A stretch of DNA of 64,000 bases from Desulfurococcales archaeon (GCA_027030065.1 JALVFK010000109.1:13572-77571), one strand, 5' to 3'; shown: positions 15,854 to 59,846, counted from the stretch's first letter. Numbers and translations: made by a program. Notes: generated by a model not told the origin, from the sequence alone.

Positions 15854-18286
15854 TTACCGCCTCCTAACCCTACCTATAATCTTATTTAGGTATCTGAGGC
15901 TTATAGCCGCTACCACTGCCGCAACGAGTGCACCTATACCGTAGCTGTATGGCGGGTTTACTAGGACTACGGGGAGTTCAGGTGTATATGTTGTTGTTAT
16001 AGTTGCGAACACTGTTACTGGTGAGACTACTGTTGTAGTCGTTGTTATAGTTGTATTGTTTATCACTGTTGTGGTAACGTTTTGTGTTACTGTACTCACC
16101 TTTACTATTGTTGTATTTGCTTTCCACACGGTTTGGACTATAGTTGTGTTCGCTATTGTTACTACTGAAGTCACTGTTACGTTGGTGCAATTACATGCAG
16201 TTACTGTTGTAAATGTCGTGTTAGTTGCTGTAGTGTTTGTCATGTTTACCGGTATAGTTGTATTCGTAATATTAGGCGGCGTTGGGGGGAGAGATATATT
16301 TAGTGTTACCCGCTTTGATGCTGTAACCCAGCGGTTTCCTAGGAAGTATTGTACCTCTACTACGAGGTCGTGTACATTCATAGTTATTGGCACGTCTAGT
16401 TCTAGTGTTGTATCGCTAAGCCATCTTGAGGTTGCTGAGAATATTAGCTCTTCTTGTCCCGTGAAGGGGTTTACTAGGTAGGCCTTATATATTGTGGGAG
16501 TCATTAACAATACTTTTTCCGTTGGAGTCCAGTAGACCTTTACTGGTACTTCGACATGGACTATTCCTGGTATACTCTTAGCTACTAGGTTGACTATGAA
16601 TGGCAAGTCTATTACTACTTGGGGTTCTATTGATACAAGCTTTATGTTAAAGGATGATATTTTCTCCTCTACTATGCTCCTAATATCTTCTGACCCCATT
16701 ACGATTCCCGGCGCCTTTATCGAGAATGTTATTGTGTAGGAGTTGTTTAGTGGTACCTGGAACTCGTAGCTTATATTCATACCATTTATAGGCTTCTCAT
16801 AGGAATACTCGTTGCCACCAACGTTTACCTTAGTTACTAGGTAGTAATGAGTGAGGTAGGGGAAGTATTTATCAAGATAGGCTTGTACATCAACCATCTT
16901 GTTGATCTCTACTACCGATACAATAGCCTTCTTATACGTCTCCTCATTCTCACATGTCAAGCATGGATTAACCGGATGTGAGGGCTTTGTAATGTTAATT
17001 AACTTTAAGTTAATATTACCGTATATTGATGGCTCATTTATCGATACATTGAGCTCTGGTACCCAGTAATCGTTGAGCCTATACGAGCCTAATGGTACTT
17101 GTCTTGCTGTGAAGGGGTCACCGGAAAGAGCTCCTGGAATATATAGTGTTAGTGTTACAATATATTCTTGGAATTTCTCTGATACTGGTATTGTGATATC
17201 TTGTTTCTTACCAGTTATCTTTAATGTATATGTCCCTAGATCATATTGCATCGTTTGGTTTCCTACCACTACTACCCCTTGTACATCGTATTCTAATACA
17301 AAGTACTTTACATAGTAGTATAAATCATCTAATAGCTGATTTAGATCTGTTAGATGATAAAATGAGGCGTTGACTCCTATCATCATACCATTTAGTGATG
17401 GTTCGAGATAGGCCGTTAGTATACCAGTAGCGAAGGGAAAGTCTATTACTGAAAGCAACTTCTTCTTGTAGGATGGTACTCCTATTGTTGGAGGTCTTAC
17501 GAATTCAATGTCAACCTTATAGGGATATAGTACAAGATATGCTGCATTGGACTTTGTTATATGATAAGTTACTCCCCCAGCAAGTGTTTGCTCGAGTGCT
17601 GGAATTATTATCTCGGAGCCCTTTGAGAGAAGCATTACCTGGTATATTCTTCCCTTGAACACTCCTGCACCCTTTAAAACCATTGAGTCTACTAGAGAGT
17701 CGTCTGGCATTGGATAGTAGAAGAAGAAGTTATCGTTTGATAACTTGACGTACATGTAGAGTATTCCTGGCACATATGCTACTTCTATTCTCTCAACTCT
17801 TCCGTGGAGTGTGGCTGTATCTGTGAGGTATTCTTTATTGCTGCTCTTATCTAGTCCTCTAACGTATATGAGGATCACGTTGTCTCCGGTAAAGTTTATG
17901 TATAGACTCCATGTTGATGGTTCTCTTGTAAAGTTTACCTGGAATTCAAGTGATTCAAGACTCGATGTGTTCATGGCAATGGATTCGGGTATTTCTATCA
18001 TTACCATAGGTCTTGGCTGTGGGTAGCTTAGCTTTATGTATCCGTCTTTTCCTATAGCCACGTATCCGGTCTCATTGTCTATTATATAGTTGTTGCCCTC
18101 AACTACAGCCTTATACAATGGTTTGTACTCTTGCAATAACCGGTTAGTACTGATTATACTGTATAGTTGTGGTGGTGGGAGTATAATCATTGGATAGATA
18201 GTGCTTGCACTAACATAGATGCTAGTGAGAGATACTAGTGCTAGTATTACTATTATTAGCCCTAGTAGCGGTCTAACGTGGTGCAC
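15854..18286 (-). CDS. 810-aa secreted, C-terminally membrane-anchored protein with a Thr/Asn-rich stalk
   Basis: GTG start with an AGGAGGGG SD. Sec-type signal MHHVRPLLGLIIVILALVSLTSIYVSAS. The C-terminal ~90 aa carry at least 12 N-x-S/T sequons, followed by a TM helix and an RVRRR tail. Confidence 0.75.
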   Translation of the reverse strand: MHHVRPLLGLIIVILALVSLTSIYVSASTIYPMIILPPPQLYSIISTNRLLQEYKPLYKAVVEGNNYIIDNETGYVAIGKDGYIKLSYPQPRPMVMIEIPESIAMNTSSLESLEFQVNFTREPSTWSLYINFTGDNVILIYVRGLDKSSNKEYLTDTATLHGRVERIEVAYVPGILYMYVKLSNDNFFFYYPMPDDSLVDSMVLKGAGVFKGRIYQVMLLSKGSEIIIPALEQTLAGGVTYHITKSNAAYLVLYPYKVDIEFVRPPTIGVPSYKKKLLSVIDFPFATGILTAYLEPSLNGMMIGVNASFYHLTDLNQLLDDLYYYVKYFVLEYDVQGVVVVGNQTMQYDLGTYTLKITGKKQDITIPVSEKFQEYIVTLTLYIPGALSGDPFTARQVPLGSYRLNDYWVPELNVSINEPSIYGNINLKLINITKPSHPVNPCLTCENEETYKKAIVSVVEINKMVDVQAYLDKYFPYLTHYYLVTKVNVGGNEYSYEKPINGMNISYEFQVPLNNSYTITFSIKAPGIVMGSEDIRSIVEEKISSFNIKLVSIEPQVVIDLPFIVNLVAKSIPGIVHVEVPVKVYWTPTEKVLLMTPTIYKAYLVNPFTGQEELIFSATSRWLSDTTLELDVPITMNVHDLVVEVQYFLGNRWVTASKRVTLNISLPPTPPNITNTTIPVNMTNTTATNTTFTTVTACNCTNVTVTSVVTIANTTIVQTVWKANTTIVKVSTVTQNVTTTVINNTTITTTTTVVSPVTVFATITTTYTPELPVVLVNPPYSYGIGALVAAVVAAISLRYLNKIIGRVRRR

Positions 18287-21793: not shown

Positions 21794-21925
21794 CCATAAT
21801 ATAGTATTGTGGATCCTAGCTTCTCGTTTCTCTAGTAGGAGGTTAAATATTAATAAATCCGCATAACAATATTTATGTATAAGTCGGCTAGGCTATACTA
21901 GAGAGTAGAAGAGGTGTTCAACAGA

Positions 21926-24277
21926 ATGTCTTTTCTAAGAAAAAAGACTAGGCGTGGTATCACATTTATAGGTGCAGTTATAATAGCAGTAGCCTTCCTC
22001 ATAGCCATAATGCTCGCAATTTCATGGATCCTAAGCTCTCAGAGAGCATACTTTACAAAACCCAACATGGTGACCGAGAAAGCTGAAGCCTATGGCGGAG
22101 GTAATACCCTTTGGCTAGAAATAAAGAACTATGGTATAAGTATCGCCACTTTAAAGGAAATATACGTTTATGATACTGAAGCAGGCAAATACTACATAGC
22201 ATATCCTAATGGAACAATAATAGACCCGGCGAAGAGAACAGCTGTTGGTACGGCTGAGATAAAGCCTCTTTCAGCAAGCGAGGGCGAATACATATATGCA
22301 AAACTAATATTCAATGCAGGTGTATTGCAAGGAAACCTTATAACAGGTGTAGCAGTATTCGATAAATCCCTTGCACCATGGAAGCTCTACAGAATACATC
22401 CGCCAGTCACACAACCAGGGTATGCTGTCAACGCGTGGAGAGTCAAGCTCTTCATATTCAATCCATCAGATTTAACAATATTCACTGATAACGCAAGCCA
22501 GTTTCTAGCTGGAACAATAACAAAGAAACCAATAGCAGTAATAACAATAACAAAGAACACACCTTTTGCCGGACACTTCTTCAACTGGAGCTGTGGGCTA
22601 GCAAGAGCCTACGGATGGACCCCAGGAAGCGATGTTGTATTCAGTGATGCTTATCGGAACACCATACTACCATTCTATCGTTACTATTTCAATTGTACAA
22701 GTAAGGTAGCGGTGTTTATAGTGTATCTGAAGAATACTACACTTTTCCCCAGACAAACATATCCAATATACATGTGGTATGCCCCATATGTAGTAGGTGG
22801 TGGAACAGTAACGATAACAGATCACAGCAATTTATCAGTATACTATATGGCGGTTAACAATAGCTTCCAGGACTTCTTCCGACAACAACCAGCTTGGGAC
22901 TATGATAATGGGTTAAGATCAAGGATCGCATGGATAAGAGACTATACAGCAAGCCAGCAAATGGATCCTATATACGACTATGAGGGTGAGGACGAAGATC
23001 TAAATGTAACCTCTTACGCGGACTGGCAATGGGATGGAAGCGATCATATCTACTGTACACAAGATCCAGCCGACGGAGACGTACAATGCTCCCTAACATA
23101 TCTTAACATGACGGACGGCTTCTTCGAAAGATTTCAAGGAGGAGGCAACTGGTACTACTACAAGTATCCAGAAGGCTATACATGGCTATTTGAAGTAGCA
23201 TTCAATATGACCCACAAACCACCACAAGCACCATTCAATCAAACCTATATAACAGCAATGACAACGGAGTTACACTACTTCTATGGTTGGTGGCTTGGAA
23301 GATGGTGGAGATATAGGGCATGGTATGGATGGGTCTCTAAGACTTTTGGTGCTACAGCAGCAAACTGGGCAATAATAATCTCTACAAGACGGCTTGACAA
23401 TCTAGTTCCACCGGACTACTATGTTATGCAACTCAAGAATGTAGAAGGAATAATACTTATTAACACGAGTATAACAGTTTATTGGAGATCGCCGGACTAT
23501 GCTTCAGAGACAAGTAGGCAGAACCTAGCCCTAACACCTAACTCGAGCGTGACGGTAACGGTATATAATGATACGACTACTGGTGTAGTAAGACTTATAG
23601 TTCAAACCGATATCCGGACCTATAACTTTGTATTGTATCCAAGTAATAGTAACTACGCTTTCAGAGTATTACTCATAAATACTACTGGCGGATACATAAA
23701 GTTGTTCGTAAACGCATGGACTGATGGAAGCGGCTACGGAGTATACTACGATGACTATGATTATCCCGCGCTTGGAAGAGAACTAATACCAAGCAGAACA
23801 GTTAGAGCATACTATATATGGCCTAGATACTTCGCAGTATGGTGGATAGCGTCAAAATGGAAAGACACTGATTCTACAATATGGGTTGGAAGAGAACTTG
23901 AAGCAACACTACAGACAAGAGACTTAACAAAACTAAACTTCAGCAAAATGCAGAGAATGGTATATAGCTTTACAAGTGGAGCAGACCTAGTCGGCACACA
24001 GTTCGTATGGATGGGTATAGCTAGTGAAGGAAACAGCATAGACGATGACGTAGGTAATCCACCACCACTCCAGTTCATAACAGCAGAAGCCAGCGGAGCC
24101 TATGGTGATGAACTAATAGAAGGAAACACTGTTACATTCATGGCAGTGGATACATGTTGGGATGATGACTATGGAACTAATTACTACTTAGTACAAGTAG
24201 ATTGGGCTAGAGTAATAATAGGATTAGGATACATATGGTGGGAAGGCCCAGTACTAGACCAATGGCCCTGGACCTAA
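21926..24277 (+). CDS. giant pilin-like protein: class III signal plus pilin module plus a ~620-aa Trp/Tyr-rich extension
   Basis: ATG at 21926 lies 9 nt after a GAGGTG SD (the track's GTG at 21914 sits inside the SD). The N-terminus is MSFLRKKTRRG|ITFIGAVIIAVAFLIAIMLAI. The first ~165 aa parallel the 164-aa pilin (e.g. ITGVAVFDKSL vs ILGIAVFDKDS). Confidence 0.75.
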   Translation: MSFLRKKTRRGITFIGAVIIAVAFLIAIMLAISWILSSQRAYFTKPNMVTEKAEAYGGGNTLWLEIKNYGISIATLKEIYVYDTEAGKYYIAYPNGTIIDPAKRTAVGTAEIKPLSASEGEYIYAKLIFNAGVLQGNLITGVAVFDKSLAPWKLYRIHPPVTQPGYAVNAWRVKLFIFNPSDLTIFTDNASQFLAGTITKKPIAVITITKNTPFAGHFFNWSCGLARAYGWTPGSDVVFSDAYRNTILPFYRYYFNCTSKVAVFIVYLKNTTLFPRQTYPIYMWYAPYVVGGGTVTITDHSNLSVYYMAVNNSFQDFFRQQPAWDYDNGLRSRIAWIRDYTASQQMDPIYDYEGEDEDLNVTSYADWQWDGSDHIYCTQDPADGDVQCSLTYLNMTDGFFERFQGGGNWYYYKYPEGYTWLFEVAFNMTHKPPQAPFNQTYITAMTTELHYFYGWWLGRWWRYRAWYGWVSKTFGATAANWAIIISTRRLDNLVPPDYYVMQLKNVEGIILINTSITVYWRSPDYASETSRQNLALTPNSSVTVTVYNDTTTGVVRLIVQTDIRTYNFVLYPSNSNYAFRVLLINTTGGYIKLFVNAWTDGSGYGVYYDDYDYPALGRELIPSRTVRAYYIWPRYFAVWWIASKWKDTDSTIWVGRELEATLQTRDLTKLNFSKMQRMVYSFTSGADLVGTQFVWMGIASEGNSIDDDVGNPPPLQFITAEASGAYGDELIEGNTVTFMAVDTCWDDDYGTNYYLVQVDWARVIIGLGYIWWEGPVLDQWPWT

Positions 24278-24306: not shown

Positions 24307-25521
24307 CTATCTTTTTCTCTTTATGACTAAGATTAATATTCCCGCTATAATTACTACAACCAGTATTAACCAATAGTTAAACTCACTACTCTTTATTGTC
24401 GTAGTAGTTATTGTAGATTTGTTAACTACTATTGTCGTGGTAGTATTCTGTACTTTTGTTATTATTTGCCCTCTACTCCTATGTACAATTATACTGAGGG
24501 TTCTCTCTGGTGTCTCAGAATATACTCTCTTCCCAGAAACCATTACTAACTTAAACGTGTATGTCCCGTTCTGCCATCCGTTTACTGGAATATAACGATA
24601 CTTGTACTCTGCTCTACCCTGGGATAATACTGGTATAGTAGCTATAGTTACATTCTCTAAGAAACTCCCATTATAGTTCACTACCAATACTATGCTGACA
24701 TTGTTAACTGGTTTATAGACATTTTTTACTACTCCTATCACTTCTGCAAACACTATATTGTTGTCCTTATAATATGGTAATATGTCAAAATAGTCAAACC
24801 ATATAGTTGAAACCGTTAAAAACACTTTTTCTGTCTCGTTTTCTTCTATTACAACTTTTTCTTCAGCGAGTAATTCTCCAGCTAGAGTTGCTTTAACGAT
24901 ATATTTACCCGGCGGTAATGATATGTTAATGTAACCAGTCTTGTTTGTTACAACAGTATATTCACCTTTTGGAGTTATTCTAAGCACTCTTACCTCAGTA
25001 ATAACATGATTCCCTTCTTTATCTACTGTCTCTACTACTAGCCTACCAGTAGGCCCTACTATTCTTATTGTTGTTCTCTGACCAGCTCCTGGTACAAGTA
25101 TAACCTTACCCTCTACAGTCTTCATCATAATATTCGCGTAGACTTTTATCTCGTACTCGCCGGGTATAGCGTTGGGAAGCGCCTTAATCTTAATATATAC
25201 TATCTTATGCTCTCCAGGCAACAAGGTTACATTTCGATGCGAAAATATTATTTCTATGAAGTCTGGTGCTTCGTATCCTAAACTCACGTTTACGGGCTTA
25301 CTCGCTGTATTAATTACGGCTATGTATATGTCCCTTCCCTCAATAGTAGTATTGGGGGCTAGTACATACTCGTATTTGTAAAATGATCCAGTTATAGCTA
25401 TTCTCGATGATTCAGATTCAGCATAACTTATCGAAAGAGATGTTAGTGAGACAAATACTGCAATAATCAATAATATTACAAATAGTAACCTGGTACTATA
25501 AACTGTGTTCACGATAAACAC
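24307..25521 (-). CDS. secreted, C-terminally anchored surface protein (beta-sandwich repeats)
   Basis: Signal peptide, CARDB/NEW3-like and CarboxypepD_reg-like segments ('GRLVVETVDKEGNHV...PPGKYIVKATLAG'), a Thr-rich stalk, a TM helix and a KRKR tail. Confidence 0.7.
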   Translation of the reverse strand: MFIVNTVYSTRLLFVILLIIAVFVSLTSLSISYAESESSRIAITGSFYKYEYVLAPNTTIEGRDIYIAVINTASKPVNVSLGYEAPDFIEIIFSHRNVTLLPGEHKIVYIKIKALPNAIPGEYEIKVYANIMMKTVEGKVILVPGAGQRTTIRIVGPTGRLVVETVDKEGNHVITEVRVLRITPKGEYTVVTNKTGYINISLPPGKYIVKATLAGELLAEEKVVIEENETEKVFLTVSTIWFDYFDILPYYKDNNIVFAEVIGVVKNVYKPVNNVSIVLVVNYNGSFLENVTIATIPVLSQGRAEYKYRYIPVNGWQNGTYTFKLVMVSGKRVYSETPERTLSIIVHRSRGQIITKVQNTTTTIVVNKSTITTTTIKSSEFNYWLILVVVIIAGILILVIKRKR

Positions 25522-31749: not shown

Positions 31750-32586
31750 TTAGCCTACACGGTTTAAGTCTATTCTTATACCGCTCCCAAACCCCTTTAC
31801 CGCTATGTGAAGCCTCCCCCTAGACTCATAGTATTCTGAATCTATGTAATAGTACTCATAGAGTCTCGAACCATTAATGTTTACTTCTTCTACTCCACCT
31901 ATGTTTTCCCTAACAACTCTTATCTTAGTATAATTGCTTATATTGATTCTCGAATAAGATATCGAAGTATATGATTCTAGTTCAAATGATATTTCACCAG
32001 TATAGTTTAATCTAGAGTAATCCATATAGGATTCCATTAATGATTCTTCTAGTCTCACTACAATAGCATTTATTAGACTATTATTTGCTATGAATTCCAC
32101 TATACTTCCAGTAAACCTTGCCTCAATATAATTACATCTCATGTTATTTAATGATACTAGAATGTATGATAACTTACTATCTAGTCCCAAGTAATCTATT
32201 TCCTCGGGCAACAGTATCTCAACAAAATATCCTATTACAATCATTGTCTTCACGCCATCTTCATCGTAGAGCATGTATTCAGAGGGTATGTTTGCTAACG
32301 CCGTTAACTTCACCTCTATTCCACTATTATTGTTACTATATGATGTTATTTTTACAATAGAACTCCTAAACTTGAATGCTATACGTGTAGTATTTAGTGA
32401 AAACTTTGTTGTCGCATTGGATTTCACGAGTATGTTTTCAAGTATTGTATTGTATATTGTTTTTACTAGGCTCTTGTATCCAGTCTCTCCTCGGGGGTTG
32501 TAGGCTTGCATAACTATTAATGGGTATATGAGACCTATTACCAGTATTACTACTAGTATTGATCCTATGAGTAGTTGTTTTCTCAA
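31750..32586 (-). CDS. N-terminally anchored extracytoplasmic protein, unknown function
   Basis: 278 aa. 'MRKQLLIGSILVVILVIGLIYPLIV' anchor, rest Asn/Tyr/Ser-rich. Confidence 0.55.
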   Translation of the reverse strand: MRKQLLIGSILVVILVIGLIYPLIVMQAYNPRGETGYKSLVKTIYNTILENILVKSNATTKFSLNTTRIAFKFRSSIVKITSYSNNNSGIEVKLTALANIPSEYMLYDEDGVKTMIVIGYFVEILLPEEIDYLGLDSKLSYILVSLNNMRCNYIEARFTGSIVEFIANNSLINAIVVRLEESLMESYMDYSRLNYTGEISFELESYTSISYSRINISNYTKIRVVRENIGGVEEVNINGSRLYEYYYIDSEYYESRGRLHIAVKGFGSGIRIDLNRVG

Positions 32587-34245: not shown

Positions 34246-35241
34246 TCAACTCTTCATTAGAAGATCGGAGAGCTTCCTTACAGCATTCTTGTACAGGGAT
34301 ATACTCTTCGTAGTGCTTGGATCCACTTTATACATTCTTGCAAGATATACCGAGGCTAGTCCACCAACAATTGTACCATATATTAATTTCTGGAAATACC
34401 CGTTACCATTAAGTCTTAGTATTTTTGTTGGAAGACCGAGTTGTTTATAATAGTTTTCTGCAAAGTTCATGAGAACTTCTAAGGCCTCATCATCTATATC
34501 GTGTACTATTAGTGCTCCCCAGGGATATCTACCATTCCTCTCCCATCCTACAATATCGTTATGACCCCACTCCGGTATGATTTCTACTTTGACTGGTACC
34601 TTAGAGTTCTCGTTGAACTCGTTCTTGAGTCTCCAGCCTAAGCCCCAGTACTTGTTGGGGACAACAATTATTGGGATGCGATCATAGAGGTCCTCGGCTA
34701 TAATTTTAGCGTCCTCAACAATATTATTCATGTTCTGTCGAAGGAATAATACTAGGTCTTCTACTTCTTTGCGGGAGACAAGTGTTAGATTCGATGAATC
34801 AAGTACTCCTAGAGCTGCCGTTAACATTTCAGGTAGGGCTGTACGAGGTAGGAGATTTTCCGATACCTTTACGTATGGTATGTTTTCTTCTTCAGCCTTC
34901 TCGAGTAACATGCCGTTAGAAGCTATTACAACGATATTTAAGTCACGTTTCAATGCTTTATTAAAACATGAAATCGTTTCAATAGTATTACCTGAGTAGC
35001 TGACAATAAAGACGAGATCCCTCTCATCTAGGAACAAGGGTAGCTCATAGTCTTTAACCACAAGTACAGGGGGAAAGCCTGGCTTACGGAACGCGAGCAT
35101 TGAAACATAATCTCCAACTACTCCGCTTCCACCCATACCACAAAATACTATTGACCTGGGCTTCAAGTGTAGGCTTACCTTACCCCAAGACTCCAACATG
35201 TTACGGAACATATCTGGCCAACGTAGGTAGAGGTCTTCCAT
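34246..35241 (-). CDS. bifunctional phosphoglucose/phosphomannose isomerase (SIS-domain PGI/PMI family)
   Basis: SIS motifs 'FCGMGGSGVVGDY' and 'IVSYSGNTIET'. The 331-aa size fits crenarchaeal PGI/PMI. SD GGTGATC lies before the ATG. Confidence 0.8.
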   Translation of the reverse strand: MEDLYLRWPDMFRNMLESWGKVSLHLKPRSIVFCGMGGSGVVGDYVSMLAFRKPGFPPVLVVKDYELPLFLDERDLVFIVSYSGNTIETISCFNKALKRDLNIVVIASNGMLLEKAEEENIPYVKVSENLLPRTALPEMLTAALGVLDSSNLTLVSRKEVEDLVLFLRQNMNNIVEDAKIIAEDLYDRIPIIVVPNKYWGLGWRLKNEFNENSKVPVKVEIIPEWGHNDIVGWERNGRYPWGALIVHDIDDEALEVLMNFAENYYKQLGLPTKILRLNGNGYFQKLIYGTIVGGLASVYLARMYKVDPSTTKSISLYKNAVRKLSDLLMKS

Positions 35242-35442: not shown

Positions 35443-38400
35443 TTGAAGACCATAGACCTTCTTCCAACAATACTACTGCTACTATTGATATTATCACTAG
35501 TACCAGGTATACTATTTCAGCAACCACTTATAGCGAGATCTCAGGACGAGCCGCTTTATATAGCCTTTGTATGGCACTTCCATCAACCGTGGTATAAGAA
35601 TCCGTGGAATGAGAGTCAGAGCCTCCTGCCCTGGGCTAGGCTTCACGCTATGAAGAGCTATTACCACATGGTCAAGCTCATAGCAGATTATGGTGGAAGA
35701 GTTAAGGTTACCTTCAACATAGTGGGCTCACTGATAAAACAATTAGTTGACTATGCATCAGGTAACACTACTGACCCCTACTGGGATATCTCGCGTACGA
35801 ATGCCTCTCAGCTTACCATTGATCAGAAGGTATTCATCCTACAACGCTTTTTTGATGCAAACTGGGATAGACAGATATCTCAGTGGCCCCGATACAAATA
35901 CCTACTTGACACTAGGAACAATTTGCTTGATCAGAACAATAACAATTATACGGCTATTGTAGACGACTTTACTGTAGATGACTACCGAGACCTACAAGTA
36001 TTATTCAACCTAGTATGGTTTAACAAAGAGATACTATACAACGACCCTGACCTAAGGCCTCTGTGGGAGAAAGCTGTTAGGAGCAATTATTCAAGCACAC
36101 CACTATATAATTATACTGAGTGGCAAATAGTATTAGACAAGATAAAATACTATATTAACGCTACAATAGATATCTGGAAAACAGTTGACACCAACAACTG
36201 GTCTGAATTCATAACAACACCGGGTTTCCATCCAATAGCACCACTCCTAATAAACACCAGTAATGCTCTGAGAAGAACACCTAGAGCGATAATACCTTAT
36301 CCATACTTCTCTCACCCTGAAGACCTTGAAGCTCACATAAATATATCGATAAATCAATACTCTTATCTTCTAGGACATAAGCCAACGGGTATGTGGCCAG
36401 CTGAAGAAGCTGTTTGCGACGAGCTATTACCAATAATAGCAGCTAAAGGCTTCAACCACCTCATAACAGATCAGAGCATACTCAAAGCATATCTCGGGGG
36501 AAGGAATCCCAGTGCTCAAGAACTCTATGCTGCCTGGTACAGATACGTGCGGAACGGTACTAGTCTGGCTAAAGTATACGTATTCTTCCGCGACATAGGG
36601 TTCTCTAACCTAATAAGTTTTGACTACGATGACTGGCTGGATCAGTACGGCTATAATAGCACTAATCCCGCAAATAATATAAGTGATTGGGAATACTATA
36701 AGGGAGCTGCTCAAGACCTTGTCGATAAGCTCTACAATATCTATAAGACCTATGGTGGAGGCCACCTAGTAGTAATTGCCTTAGATGGAGAGAATCCTTG
36801 GGAATGGTACTGGGATGATGGATGGGTATTCTTAAACTGGACCTATCATCTAATAGACATAAATGCAAGCCTTGAAGCAGTAAGCTTACAAGACTATGTA
36901 AACTTAGTGCAGCAGGGATCAGGCTATAGCTATGAGCTTGGCTACTTGCCAACTGGTTCGTGGATAGACGATGATAGTGATGGTATAGGAGACCTCATGC
37001 GATGGATAGGAGAATGGGAAGAAAACGCAGCATGGAGTCTTTTACGTAAAACAAGAGAAGACCTAGGAACCCTTGATCCCGATAAGACGTTAACGAAGGC
37101 ATGGTGGTACATGTATGCTGCAGAAGGTAGCGACTGGTTCTGGTGGTATGGAAGAGACCAGGAAGTACCCGGTGAGGAGAATTTTGACAACTTGTTTAGA
37201 GAATACATTGAATTCATCTACAGTGAGCTAGGATTATCGCCTCCAACTGATCCGTGGCCCGCGGATCAACCAATACATTATAGGAGCCAGACACAAGTAC
37301 AATGGGTTGGAAGAGAGAATGAAGCTATCTATGTATTTAATGGAACCGATATCAATTTCACAGTAGAGGTATATGGCAATACTTCTACTAATACAACTGC
37401 CGATCCAGGCCAATTACCGGGTATCCGTCTAATAATACATTGGAGCCCCGTAGATGAGTGGGGTGGGAGATGGAAAGAGCCCCACTATGCTCTAATGGAC
37501 TATTTAGGCGATTCGGGCAATAATGACGTATATAATTACACGTTTAAAGACCTGCCTTCGGGTAAGTATGAGGTAGTGATCATAGCTAATGCCGGCTACA
37601 ACCAGGATCATGCTTGGAGCGACGCTTATTCTACTACATGGTCTATTATAGGTAATTATCGCATAGAAATACTACCCACTACAAGTGCATCAATAACTAA
37701 TGCTAGTATTCTCGGCGCTAAGATTCTTTGGGATTACGGTTTAACTAATGGATACTATGATGTAGCATCAGCCAATATACTAAATACTAGTACACGCGAT
37801 ATAGTAGATGTTATCGTAAAAGTATATGCCCCCGGAGAAGACCCCAACTCTATATACGCAATACTACATTGGGGTAAAGTTAGTACCTGGGGAGGAACAT
37901 GGTGGCCCATAAACGACTACGTCGGCGAATACCTCTACAGTGATAGTCAGGGATACCATTACTACAAGATACCAGTAAACATACCTAAAACCGGAGCATA
38001 TGAAGCAGTAGTACATGTAGTAGCCTCAAACGATTACTGGGCTAACTGGAATGGAGCGAATATGAAGATAAACGTTACAAGCCCCGTGCTCGTAGTATTC
38101 AATGCTACTACACCGAGTACAACGCCAACGGGATCTGCTGTATTTGTTGCACCCAATATAGCTAACTGGAGTAGTGCTGGATTACTGCTTACAGCTAATA
38201 GTGAGTTCACGGACGTAGACTTATTCTCAAAGACATATGATATACAAGTCAATACCGTACCTAATCCGATACCTGAGCCCGGGTTCACAGTGTTGATAGT
38301 AGCTGTCTTAACTCTAGCATTGATAGTATTATTGAACCGTAGGAGGATCTTGTATGCACTAATACTATTGCTGTTGATAGCATCAATTGCCTCTATGATA

Positions 38401-39228
38401 CCTAGCATATCTCAATACGAGATAAAGATAGACGGCTACCTTTATGACTGGGTTGACGACTGGATAGTGGGGACAAGTACGCCTAACGTTACAGGAGGTA
38501 ATGGAGCCAATATAGCGAAGGCGTGGGTGACGTGGAATGAAACTCACCTATTAATAGCATTGAAGACGGATAATAATGAGAGCTGGAATGTTGCCTACGG
38601 TATAGCGATAGACTATGATTCAACCGACTACTCGGGATATAATGGTACGAGTGATGCATGGGGACGAGCAATAGGATTCTCTAATGCAACAATATTCCCA
38701 GACATCATGGTTTATGCTTGGTGGCAAAGCGGCAATAATACTATAACAGCAGCCGATATAGCATTATGGAATGGATCAACATGGATTTACCGAGACTTCT
38801 CAAACTTCAACGACAATAACCCAATCTTACCTGGATCCAAGATAGCGTGGACTGGTGGAGAAAATGGTTTACAAACACTAGAGTTATCGTTAAACTGGAC
38901 CGCTATCACGGGACAAAACTTTACATCAATGATAGGGAAGACACTGCATATAATATTCTTCGTTGCTGGAGACTCTGGGAGCTCTGCTATAGTGAAACTA
39001 CCATACGAGGACAGTATAAGAAACACGTTAACCTCCTGGAGAAGGGGAATCCATCTACCAGTAGGACTACACGTAGAATACAAGTATACTAGAGGATCAT
39101 GGAGCACTGTTGAGGGAACAACAAGTGGTACAACATGTGTTGACATAGCCAACCGCATAGTCGACGTATATGATCCGGGAAACGGCATGCTAATACTAAA
39201 CGATACAGTTGACTGTTGGGAAGGCTAA
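35443..39228 (+). CDS. GH57 family alpha-glucan-active enzyme (amylase/amylopullulanase-like) with starch-binding-like repeats, an internal TM hairpin and a C-terminal carbohydrate-binding module
   Basis: Signal peptide. GH57 motifs 'WHFHQPWY', 'GMWPAEEAV' (nucleophile Glu region) and 'IALDGENPWE' (acid/base Asp region). One continuous 1261-aa frame. TTG start. Confidence 0.85.
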   Translation: MKTIDLLPTILLLLLILSLVPGILFQQPLIARSQDEPLYIAFVWHFHQPWYKNPWNESQSLLPWARLHAMKSYYHMVKLIADYGGRVKVTFNIVGSLIKQLVDYASGNTTDPYWDISRTNASQLTIDQKVFILQRFFDANWDRQISQWPRYKYLLDTRNNLLDQNNNNYTAIVDDFTVDDYRDLQVLFNLVWFNKEILYNDPDLRPLWEKAVRSNYSSTPLYNYTEWQIVLDKIKYYINATIDIWKTVDTNNWSEFITTPGFHPIAPLLINTSNALRRTPRAIIPYPYFSHPEDLEAHINISINQYSYLLGHKPTGMWPAEEAVCDELLPIIAAKGFNHLITDQSILKAYLGGRNPSAQELYAAWYRYVRNGTSLAKVYVFFRDIGFSNLISFDYDDWLDQYGYNSTNPANNISDWEYYKGAAQDLVDKLYNIYKTYGGGHLVVIALDGENPWEWYWDDGWVFLNWTYHLIDINASLEAVSLQDYVNLVQQGSGYSYELGYLPTGSWIDDDSDGIGDLMRWIGEWEENAAWSLLRKTREDLGTLDPDKTLTKAWWYMYAAEGSDWFWWYGRDQEVPGEENFDNLFREYIEFIYSELGLSPPTDPWPADQPIHYRSQTQVQWVGRENEAIYVFNGTDINFTVEVYGNTSTNTTADPGQLPGIRLIIHWSPVDEWGGRWKEPHYALMDYLGDSGNNDVYNYTFKDLPSGKYEVVIIANAGYNQDHAWSDAYSTTWSIIGNYRIEILPTTSASITNASILGAKILWDYGLTNGYYDVASANILNTSTRDIVDVIVKVYAPGEDPNSIYAILHWGKVSTWGGTWWPINDYVGEYLYSDSQGYHYYKIPVNIPKTGAYEAVVHVVASNDYWANWNGANMKINVTSPVLVVFNATTPSTTPTGSAVFVAPNIANWSSAGLLLTANSEFTDVDLFSKTYDIQVNTVPNPIPEPGFTVLIVAVLTLALIVLLNRRRILYALILLLLIASIASMIPSISQYEIKIDGYLYDWVDDWIVGTSTPNVTGGNGANIAKAWVTWNETHLLIALKTDNNESWNVAYGIAIDYDSTDYSGYNGTSDAWGRAIGFSNATIFPDIMVYAWWQSGNNTITAADIALWNGSTWIYRDFSNFNDNNPILPGSKIAWTGGENGLQTLELSLNWTAITGQNFTSMIGKTLHIIFFVAGDSGSSAIVKLPYEDSIRNTLTSWRRGIHLPVGLHVEYKYTRGSWSTVEGTTSGTTCVDIANRIVDVYDPGNGMLILNDTVDCWEG

Positions 39229-39272: not shown

Positions 39273-39863
39273 CTATATATTATAGAAGGAGGAAGCCATC
39301 ACTATCAACCCCGTCTCTATAGCTGCTGCAACAACGAGCAGAATGAATACTAGTAACAATATAGTTGCTTGCTGCTTCAACCTCTTTTTATACTCCTCCA
39401 TGGAGATCTTCTTAAACACTTTAAGCCACGTTGATACACCGAAATCTATTCCCGTACTAGCTGCAAGTATTACTGCTGGAACCTCTAATACACCATGAGG
39501 CAACATGGCTGCGACAGAGAATACTGCTGGAATACCTGTTGTAGCCTCAAAGTATACGACTAGAGCTGATACCCCCGCCCCGTTAACCAACATTATTATA
39601 ACTGGTGCTACAACTGTTATACCGAGACCATAGGATAAGGGGAAGGCTATGAATAGGTTATGTTGTAGAATATAGAGGTATACTTCTAGAGCCCCCATAG
39701 ACAATATCTCGTTGACATCACCGAACTCGTTCATTACTTGTTGCGCCATATCCTCCCATACTATTACTCCAACAACAATACCCGCGGCAAAGGCTATTGT
39801 GCTTACAAGTATATAGTATCTTATCCTCCACAATCCCTCTAATAGTATCCTAAAATAGCTCAT
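39273..39863 (-). CDS. SpoIIM/DUF95-like membrane protein
   Basis: 'ILQHNLFIAFPL' and 'LPHGVLEVPAVILA' resemble the stage II sporulation protein M family. 196 aa, about 5 TM. Confidence 0.6.
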   Translation of the reverse strand: MSYFRILLEGLWRIRYYILVSTIAFAAGIVVGVIVWEDMAQQVMNEFGDVNEILSMGALEVYLYILQHNLFIAFPLSYGLGITVVAPVIIMLVNGAGVSALVVYFEATTGIPAVFSVAAMLPHGVLEVPAVILAASTGIDFGVSTWLKVFKKISMEEYKKRLKQQATILLLVFILLVVAAAIETGLIVMASSFYNI

Positions 39864-58541: not shown

Positions 58542-59846
58542 CTATATAGTTTTCGATAACTTGCGCCAAGCTATAACAGGGAACAATGCTATCAACGTTA
58601 ATATTACTACCAAGAGCACAACTACTATGAGGTAATAGTCATTATATGAGGGTTTAGTTATGCCTGAGTGCTCGGTTTCTCCGCATATTTGGTTAGCCTT
58701 ATTTTCTACCATACCGAGCCACTGAATGTTTATGTCTACTATATCCTTATTCATAGGATGAGTAGCTAGTACTAGTTTTACAGGTTTGTTATAGAGTCTT
58801 GACGAATAATTATTGTAGTATGTTAGAAACTTATTATAGATTTCTCCTAATATTTCGTAGGCGTTGCCCGTTACTTGAAGTGAGGATTCATTGTATATTA
58901 TCAGAGGTTTTGTTACATTGAATTTTACACTATAGTTTCCAGTTGCTTCTGCAAAAGGGTTTTCATTTAGAACACTAGATATAAGCGATATTGTATCTTC
59001 TTCGCTGATACTAGTGTTTAAATCGTATATTATTATGAGGGAACGCGGATTAAAACTTCTCTTCGTAACTATCGGCTTATTTTCAACTATAACTAATAAC
59101 TTGCGCCTTCCATTTAGATATACGTGATAGGAGGAGAACGTCTTAGTGGTAATGTTCTCCGATATATACATATAGTATTCAGAGTAAACACTTTGAGCTA
59201 GCAGACCATTTATATTGGATAATATTATCCGCGCTTTAATATATTCTATTGTATTATTAGTCTTTTTATCTAAAGCTATAGACAATAGCGAATCCAAAAC
59301 AAGTATGGTGTTTCTCCTATCCTCTATTAACTCAAGGAATCCTCCAGGCAATCTTATATGGGAACCTATTTCCATGTTTAAATATTTTAATGGAATCCTT
59401 AATGTTTTTGTGAAAATAATCTCCATGTATGGGAGATATTTTCTGTCTGGGAGAAGAATGCCTCCTAAATCCCATATTGTGTAGATAATATTTCTATTCC
59501 AGCCGAGGTATTTCTCAATTATTTTTCTTGTATCATTGTATGGTTTATTATTAAATGCTATTATCTTCACGGTACAATTTGCTCCGCTTTCTAATGTGAA
59601 TAAAGGCTTTGATAGATTATAGTAATATATTTCTAGCGAAGTATTATTGTACATTATTTCTCCTATCTTGACAGCATTACTCCATATGGTGTCGTAGAAT
59701 TCTTTCCATTCGATCTCTACTGGTTTAACAATACATGCGTGGGAAGGTATGAGTGAAATATCTATGAGTGAGAGTATGAGTATAATTAGTGATGCTAAAA
59801 AGATTCTTTTAGAATACTTCTGGAGCCCTCCATTCACCCCATACAT
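58542..59846 (-). CDS. N- and C-terminally anchored extracytoplasmic protein, unknown function
   Basis: 434 aa. N-terminal hydrophobic segment 'KRIFLASLIILILSLIDISL', many N-x-S/T sequons and a C-terminal TM helix plus 'WRKLSKTI'. The start overlaps the mutase stop by 38 nt. Confidence 0.6.
   Translation of the reverse strand: MYGVNGGLQKYSKRIFLASLIILILSLIDISLIPSHACIVKPVEIEWKEFYDTIWSNAVKIGEIMYNNTSLEIYYYNLSKPLFTLESGANCTVKIIAFNNKPYNDTRKIIEKYLGWNRNIIYTIWDLGGILLPDRKYLPYMEIIFTKTLRIPLKYLNMEIGSHIRLPGGFLELIEDRRNTILVLDSLLSIALDKKTNNTIEYIKARIILSNINGLLAQSVYSEYYMYISENITTKTFSSYHVYLNGRRKLLVIVENKPIVTKRSFNPRSLIIIYDLNTSISEEDTISLISSVLNENPFAEATGNYSVKFNVTKPLIIYNESSLQVTGNAYEILGEIYNKFLTYYNNYSSRLYNKPVKLVLATHPMNKDIVDINIQWLGMVENKANQICGETEHSGITKPSYNDYYLIVVVLLVVILTLIALFPVIAWRKLSKTI

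Follow-up and report, generated by a model that had tools for sequence, protein, structure and literature searches.

The window analysed here is a 64,000-nucleotide stretch of DNA from a Desulfurococcales archaeon (GCA_027030065.1, JALVFK010000109.1:13572-77571), and the gene under study is an open reading frame (ORF) of 1261 amino acids (aa) at positions 35443..39228 on the plus strand, with a TTG start, which encodes a predicted secreted, membrane-tethered enzyme of glycoside hydrolase family GH57. Full-length orthologues share 65-99% identity with it. In mid-chain lie two hydrophobic segments joined by a short basic loop. These segments, with a stalk before them and a beta-rich module behind them, appear to interrupt a starch-binding domain of the CBM20 family, the complementary halves of which are recognised on either side.

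The catalytic part is identified by the Pfam model Glyco_hydro_57 (PF03065), which matches aa 41-490 (35563..36912, +) with 130.1 bits against a cut-off of 21.2 (E=1.4e-37). Its motifs HQP, WPAEEAV, ALDGENPWE and AEGSDWFWWYG do not differ from one orthologue to another, and from the GH57 literature we take WPAEEAV (E321/E322) and ALDGENPWE (D448) to hold the nucleophile and the acid/base. The product is predicted to be exported and to hydrolyse alpha-glucans, and its host is an uncultured hyperthermophilic crenarchaeon. In a Kyte-Doolittle scan with a 19-aa window and a threshold of >1.6, just three stretches of the whole protein stand out as hydrophobic: the N-terminal signal peptide (aa ~1-33, 35443..35541, +; hydrophobic over aa 1-31) and two segments at aa ~946-966 and aa ~968-990. 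The latter two are referred to here as the transmembrane (TM) helices TM1 (aa 946-965, 38278..38337, +) and TM2 (aa 969-990, 38347..38412, +), and the residues RRR between them (aa 966-968, 38338..38346, +) as the basic loop. Nucleotides (nt) 38278-38412 translate to aa 946-990 as PGFTVLIVAVLTLALIVLLNRRRILYALILLLLIASIASMIPSISQ, that is, PGFTVLIVAVLTLALIVLLN-RRR-ILYALILLLLIASIASMIPSISQ. The first-pass annotation of this DNA had described an anchor-like segment followed by a signal-like segment in the middle of the ORF, and the reading frame, the translation and the hydropathy all agree with that description.

The hairpin formed by TM1, the loop and TM2 is a constant feature of the protein. A homologue search returns one orthologue with 99% identity (P0001) and four with 65% (P0002-P0005; 1253-1263 aa), all of them full-length and all reading through the junction. 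Fifteen sequences of 1250-1261 aa, taken from separate assemblies at NCBI and ENA, make up the 90% cluster of P0001, and those inspected are all continuous. A genome scan, with hosts among metagenome-assembled genomes of uncultured Desulfurococcales, Thermoprotei and Pyrodictiaceae, adds four loci with 96%, 95%, 65% and 80% (partial) identity, each in frame at the junction. In all, the two-helix hairpin is present in frame in about 20 of about 20 distinct orthologues from independent assemblies, and because it is in frame in every one of them it is neither a chance feature nor an assembly error. The first-pass annotation had raised the question of whether orthologues are split at this point; none is, and the ORF is continuous across the junction with hardly any room for doubt.

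The pattern of conservation also indicates how the hairpin evolves. When 20 distinct sequences are compared, TM1, which is hydrophobic but variable, has a mean pairwise column identity of 0.52, TM2 has 0.57 and the N-terminal signal peptide a similarly low 0.47, compared with 0.76-0.86 for the folded regions. In the same set no two hairpins differ in length by more than one residue, and the loop, basic in all orthologues, carries two to four K or R and no D or E, with the variants RRR, RKR, RKK, YRNRK, YKRK, LRRK and YKKY. Identity, length and loop charge together show a segment that evolves as a membrane-embedded one would, unlike a decayed intergenic region.

The sequence on the two sides of the hairpin provides the central observation. 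The residues before it (VLVVFNATTPSTTPTGSAVFVAPNIANW...) and the C-terminal tail (...WRRGIHLPVGLHVEYKYTRGSW...NR...DTVDCW) resemble the two ends of a single starch-binding domain. A hidden Markov model (HMM) built from 44 contiguous CBM20 domains only, and so from none that is interrupted, assigns model positions 4-45 to aa 880-921 (38080..38205, +; 23.5 bits; strands 1-3, including W909) and positions 44-105 to aa 1195-1260 (44.9 bits), for a total of 70 bits; the C-terminal half, with strands 4-8, extends to aa 1261 (39025..39225, +). The halves meet exactly at HMM position 44/45, and no part of the domain is lost or present twice. The interruption consists of the 273 residues aa 922-1194, which fall into the loop that connects strand 3 to strand 4. 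By this homology, aa 880-921 and aa 1195-1260 are almost certainly complementary, non-overlapping halves of a CBM20 domain. The C-terminal part had been called carbohydrate-binding-like in the first-pass annotation; this holds for the last ~66 aa, although it was missed that they make up only half of a domain and that the rest of it precedes the hairpin.

Standard domain searches respond to the interruption as follows. The native long segments aa 620-969 and aa 970-1261 give no Pfam CBM_20 match at E<=1, and the fragment aa 870-1261 gives a sub-threshold match of 16.8 bits to the C-terminal half only (model positions 45-68). When the two halves of the window's protein are spliced together, the CBM_20 match spans the splice with 22.0 bits (E=1.5e-4), and the spliced halves of orthologue P0002 reach 28.7 bits (E=1.1e-6), over the PF00686 gathering score of 23.3 bits.

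The relationship to uninterrupted domains was examined with HMMER, by comparing a profile of aa 870-1261 with 1.84 billion representative proteins. This search gives 203 matches, of which the best 150 were re-scored locally. Among these 150, matches to the N-terminal half (profile positions ~10-52) and the C-terminal half (~330-396) occur next to each other in 79 unrelated proteins, as 105 instances, with a median gap of 8 aa and a gap of at most 25 aa in 104 of the 105; an unbroken match across the ~280 profile positions in between is seen in the orthologues alone. Contiguous homologues are found in GH13 alpha-amylases at positions annotated by Pfam as CBM_20. In a MAFFT alignment of the orthologues with 44 contiguous domains, the latter show a gap of 266-278 residues (276 in most rows inspected) corresponding to ORF aa 914 to 1190. 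Pfam recognises 46 of the 49 members of this alignment as CBM_20 (best E=3.7e-13), and the alignment profile matches the starch-binding domain (SBD) of Aspergillus niger glucoamylase (1AC0) over its full length with E=3.5e-7, as well as the CBM48 of AMPK-beta and domain E of CGTase.

In the alignment with 1AC0, W909, W1199, K1214 and N1237 correspond to W543, W563, K578 and N595, which we take to be ligand-binding residues of the glucoamylase SBD, and none of the four varies in the orthologue alignments, which comprise five sequences. Since the equivalents of these residues lie on both sides of the hairpin, the predicted binding site 1 would be built from both sides, with starch as its presumed ligand. 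The two halves have conservation values of 0.78 and 0.76, on par with the other folded domains. Two cysteines of the C-terminal half, C1232 (39136-39138) and C1258 (39214-39216), in the context TCVDIANR ... DCWEG, are also invariant in the orthologues, and many contiguous CBM20 homologues have cysteines at similar positions (e.g. GCAERANR...DLCK). C1232 and C1258 likely form a stabilising disulfide, which would fit an extracellular location.

The 273-residue insertion begins with the stalk FTDVDLFSKTYDIQVNTVPNPIPEP (aa 922-945, 38206..38277, +), in which PIPEP is invariant, continues through TM1, the loop and TM2, and ends with a beta-rich module of about 200 aa (aa 991-1194, 38413..39024, +). 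The first part of the stalk, FTDVDLFSKTYDIQV (aa 922-936, 38206-38250), is well conserved with an invariant DLF, and coincides with a beta-strand predicted by AlphaFold2 (AF2). The module starts with IDGYLYDW and has no sequence match in Pfam or the PDB. Weak matches are to CBM9_1, in one homologue, and to CBM74 (7UWV, E=0.013); by remote similarity the module seems DOMON/CBM9-like, and it is not named further here. A word-indexed homologue search with aa 990-1261 returned no match, not even to the query itself, which points to an apparent limit of the index and is no sign of absence.

The HMMER profile of aa 870-1261 does find many homologues of the module. Their family (P0121-P0165), for which there is no Pfam model or solved relative, carries the signature IDGxLxDW ... 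GANL..LYV.WD...LYIA ... SWxVAYG ... GLQTLEIxIPW ... SSAVD. Its members occur in several settings. A multi-copy surface protein of Thermococcus sp. P6 with CARDB (WP_088881740.1) has three copies of the module, and P0154 is a GH13 amylase with both the module and a CBM20. The module also matches the C-terminal domain of archaeal GH57 relatives that have no hairpin (P0006-P0012), with an hhalign probability of 94% and E=9e-8. Several members, P0130 and P0135 among them, are small standalone proteins that consist of a signal peptide, the module, a stalk, a TM helix and RRR. Two others, P0149 (ending in LLPIPEPGILVAILTVATALGLLLDPRRNKP) and P0188 (ending in ...PVPIPEPLTVTLLIAG...), are close to the window's stalk and TM1, and in both of them PIPEP, the TM helix and the basic residues form the true C-terminus. 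At the other end, 11 standalone module proteins begin with a signal peptide that aligns to TM2. The resemblance of TM1 to a C-terminal anchor and of TM2 to a signal peptide, proposed in the first-pass annotation, is therefore borne out at the level of homology.

Judged by these similarities, the insertion as a whole (stalk, TM1, RRR, TM2 and module) is homologous to standalone proteins of the form signal peptide-module-PIPEP-TM-RRR. The order found in the ORF, anchor, signal peptide and then module, is the one expected where one standalone gene ends and a second, in tandem with it, begins. The end of one such gene and the start of the next may have been captured as a cassette between strands 3 and 4 of the CBM20, and the junction of anchor and signal peptide is most simply read as a fossil of a gene end and a gene start. 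An ancestral two-gene arrangement fused by loss of a stop codon had been put forward in the first-pass annotation; the homologies of TM1 and TM2 speak for this as history, but as a plain fusion it does not stand, because a junction nested inside a domain is no simple end-to-end fusion of two complete genes. Another route considered starts from two genes with a CBM20 each, which would have fused and then undergone reciprocal deletion. It fits less well than a clean insertion, which better explains the exact, non-overlapping abutment at HMM 44/45, and on the present data both origins are candidates.

The likely orientation of the hairpin is indicated by potential N-glycosylation sites. The part of the protein that precedes the hairpin has 2.6-3.0 sequons per 100 aa and the module has 4.4, with 0 in the hairpin itself. 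Elsewhere in the window the density is 0-0.9 for cytoplasmic ORFs and 2-3 for other surface ORFs, so both flanks of the hairpin look extracellular. A single chain with an N-out/C-out hairpin agrees with four features: the signal peptide at the N-terminus, the basic charge of the loop, the distribution of sequons and a fold to which both sides contribute. This internal hairpin is very probably the topology of the protein.

By standard rules of Sec topology, export would proceed in the following steps. The N-terminal signal peptide would start the translocation of aa ~34-945, comprising the GH57 domain, a conserved beta-rich region, strands 1-3 of the CBM20 and the stalk. TM1, as a stop-transfer helix, would then halt the transfer, the RRR loop would remain in the cytoplasm, and TM2, derived from a signal peptide, would restart export and bring out the ~200-aa module and strands 4-8. 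Outside the cell, the two CBM20 halves would pack as one starch-binding beta-sandwich beside the membrane. The protein is probably a single, uncleaved polypeptide, tethered in mid-chain, whose CBM20 is reassembled outside the cell. One polypeptide with a central TM hairpin had been among the arrangements suggested in the first-pass annotation, and it is the best supported of them, given the continuous ORF, the constant hairpin, the sequons and the shared CBM20. The fuller proposal, in which the CBM20 chain exits once strand 3 is complete, passes through the membrane and back, forms the module and returns for strands 4-8, and in which the insert is a captured gene-end/gene-start junction, is somewhat favoured on balance. 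If it holds, the folding of the CBM20 would depend on a second membrane insertion, and the enzyme would be fixed to the membrane at a point inside one of its domains.

AF2 predictions were made with two alignments. With the five orthologues only, the mean predicted local distance difference test (pLDDT) score is 46, the CBM20 halves are at 26-30 and only the hairpin is confident. The second run used an alignment, A4, of the orthologues and contiguous CBM20s, and gives a mean pLDDT of 73. In this model the N-terminal half (fragment residues 11-50) has a pLDDT of 87-95, the C-terminal half (330-392) 92-97, and the hairpin (79-96 and 100-115) 82-88 as a helix-turn-helix; the stalk (59-66) adds an extra strand at ~70. 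Mixed fragments of module and CBM were misaligned by MAFFT, so the module is only shallowly sampled in the second run.

Several points count against the proposed uncleaved and reassembled structure. A4 contained contiguous CBM20s, which biases the AF2 model toward that fold; Foldseek returns only weak CGTase matches (E=7e-4, low TM-score); and we infer the packing of the two halves from pLDDT and homology. The window's own spliced CBM20 falls just under the gathering score (22.0 versus 23.3 bits). All of the orthologue sequences derive from metagenome-assembled genomes. Finally, on sequence alone, cleavage after TM2 could take place.

This last point leads to a first alternative, a complex of two chains, in which topogenesis is the same and signal peptidase cuts after TM2 (at ~SIS|QYE). 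The C-terminal chain, made up of the module and the second CBM20 half, would stay with the membrane-anchored N-terminal chain because it completes the CBM20 sandwich. TM2 matches the cleavable signal peptides of the standalone module proteins in position and character, and in the window and its close relatives small residues stand at -3 and -1 (S-I-S, S-L-S). The standalone homologues, however, have canonical sites of the A-x-A type (VSA|A, ASA|M, ASA|L, VNA|L), whereas the corresponding site in the fused clade has drifted to SIS, SET, RSS, YAT and TTS. Such drift argues against selection for cleavage, and a two-chain product is considered unlikely.

The hairpin topology could also be correct while the CBM20 halves are leftovers that do not reassemble into a functional domain, so that the region would only anchor the enzyme and bear the module. 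The slight shortfall of the spliced domain in Pfam is in line with this, as is the fact that contact between the halves is read from pLDDT and secondary structure. Leftover halves would not be expected to be as conserved as other folded domains, to keep W909, W1199, K1214 and N1237 invariant in five orthologues, or to abut exactly with nothing lost, and this explanation is judged quite improbable.

A third possibility, offered in the first-pass annotation, is internal initiation, with a second start at an in-frame TTG (38350), the sequence AGGAGG (38341-38346) as its ribosome-binding site, and TM2 as the signal peptide of a separate secreted protein of ~30 kDa. Both elements are present as described, 3 nt apart, and TM2 does resemble a signal peptide. 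The hexamer lies in the basic loop, however, where it encodes two Arg residues in an ORF that mainly uses AGG and AGA for Arg, and it occurs 54 times over both strands of this 40% GC window. It is changed to AAGAGG in the 95%-identical orthologue L002 and is missing from L003 and L004. Codons for L, V and M are inevitable within a TM helix, and the resulting product would have an incomplete CBM20. With no conserved signal and only half a domain to deliver, internal initiation is very unlikely. The chance that a sequencing or assembly error (a lost stop codon or a frameshift) merged two genes is negligible: nothing speaks for it except that a segment resembling an anchor is followed by one resembling a signal peptide, and it is already refuted by the junction's being in frame in ~20 distinct sequences of 65-99% identity from independent NCBI and ENA assemblies and by the half CBM20 on each side.

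A PGF-CTERM sorting signal for archaeosortase was considered for the stalk-TM1 region and rejected. The first-pass annotation had noted a resemblance to this motif, but PGF is replaced by PSF, PKW, PGW, PGI, PRI, PRV or PVY in orthologues, the motif is not C-terminal, as 293 residues follow RRR in all orthologues, and no NCBIfam family, the PGF-CTERM model included, matches the ORF at E<=1. As neither PGF nor AGGAGG with its TTG is conserved, the archaeosortase and internal-start ideas both lose support.

Other proteins encoded in the window end in a comparable way. ORFs of 810 aa, 404 aa and 434 aa finish with a TM helix and a basic tail (...ISLRYLNKIIGRVRRR, ...ILILVIKRKR and ...LFPVIAWRKLSKTI, respectively), and none of the three contains PGF. 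The shared ending that the first-pass annotation reported for the 810-aa and 404-aa proteins thus extends to the TM helix and basic tail and not to PGF. Five ORFs with N-terminal hydrophobic segments (15854-18286, 24307-25521, 58542-59846 and 31750-32586 on the minus strand and 21914-24277 on the plus strand) have sequon densities of 2.0-3.0 per 100 aa and no Pfam family match; three of the five end in a TM helix and basic tail. They appear to be uncharacterised surface glycoproteins. Upstream of the GH57 gene, and divergent from it, lies a gene for a bifunctional-type phosphoglucose isomerase (34246-35241, -; SIS and bact-PGI_C), so a sugar-metabolism gene adjoins it. The downstream gene (39273-39863, -) encodes a SpoIIM-family membrane protein, and no sugar ABC transporter directly adjoins the GH57 gene.

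If confirmed, the arrangement would be a natural case in which a sorting signal from a protein's terminus, together with a signal peptide, has been turned into an internal anchor, and it would demonstrate that a small domain can tolerate an insertion of 273 residues with two membrane crossings. For genome annotation, it is of practical relevance that the CBM20 is missed entirely by domain callers in the native sequence, and that gene callers or readers may wish to split the ORF at the junction. For enzymology, it suggests that a hyperthermophile may keep a starch-binding site at the membrane surface, beside the catalytic domain.

The closest known enzymes are the archaeal GH57 amylopullulanases of Thermococcus hydrothermalis and Pyrococcus furiosus (Apu) and the bacterial GH57 proteins with Glucodextran_C (PF09985), which have in common with the ORF the GH57 domain and the form of a large secreted multidomain enzyme. 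GH57 relatives also carry a C-terminal DOMON-like domain and in some cases a C-terminal TM anchor (P0013, P0016), and the Apu of T. hydrothermalis has a C-terminal TM region. The ORF differs from these relatives in that its anchor is an internal hairpin of two helices instead of a terminal helix, and in that it has a CBM20, and a discontinuous one. Apart from the five close orthologues, none of the 120 GH57 relatives listed matches the profile of aa 870-1261. Literature searches on GH57 combined with CBM20 and a transmembrane segment, and on archaeal GH57 amylopullulanases with a transmembrane segment, gave no precedent for the arrangement and no paper that bears on it directly.

The link to known CBM20 domains (PF00686, 1AC0, domain E of CGTase, in a clan with CBM48) comprises homology over the whole domain profile and equivalents of the conserved binding residues. 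Unlike these, the domain in the ORF is broken after strand 3 by 273 residues with two membrane crossings and a second folded module. Among the best 150 of the 203 matches from 1.84 billion representatives, no other interrupted CBM20 occurs outside the orthologue clade, and we know of no described carbohydrate-binding module or other extracellular beta-sandwich that is broken by a membrane-spanning hairpin.

The standalone module proteins, surface proteins of archaea and bacteria (P0130, P0135, P0149, P0188 and WP_088881740.1), are the best counterparts of the module in the insert, of its anchor of stalk, TM helix and basic residues, and of its signal-peptide-like helix. They have the order signal peptide-module-anchor with the outer elements at their true termini, whereas the ORF has anchor-signal peptide-module, internally and nested in the CBM20. 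With PGF-CTERM proteins and their archaeosortase A, the window shares Pro-Gly-Phe followed by a TM helix and basic residues, but here the motif is internal, PGF is variable, there is no NCBIfam match and the host is crenarchaeal.

In topology, the nearest parallel is the leader peptidase Lep of Escherichia coli, an N-out/C-out hairpin whose two TM helices are linked by a short cytoplasmic loop of positive charge and followed by a large exported domain at the C-terminus. The predicted hairpin of the ORF has the same layout, and differs in that its exported N-terminal part of ~910 aa needs a cleavable signal peptide of its own and in that the exported parts on the two sides share one fold. Taken singly, the amylopullulanase-like GH57 enzyme, the CBM20 and the TM anchor of the ORF are all known; the arrangement predicted for them here is not, as far as the sequence and literature searches reach.

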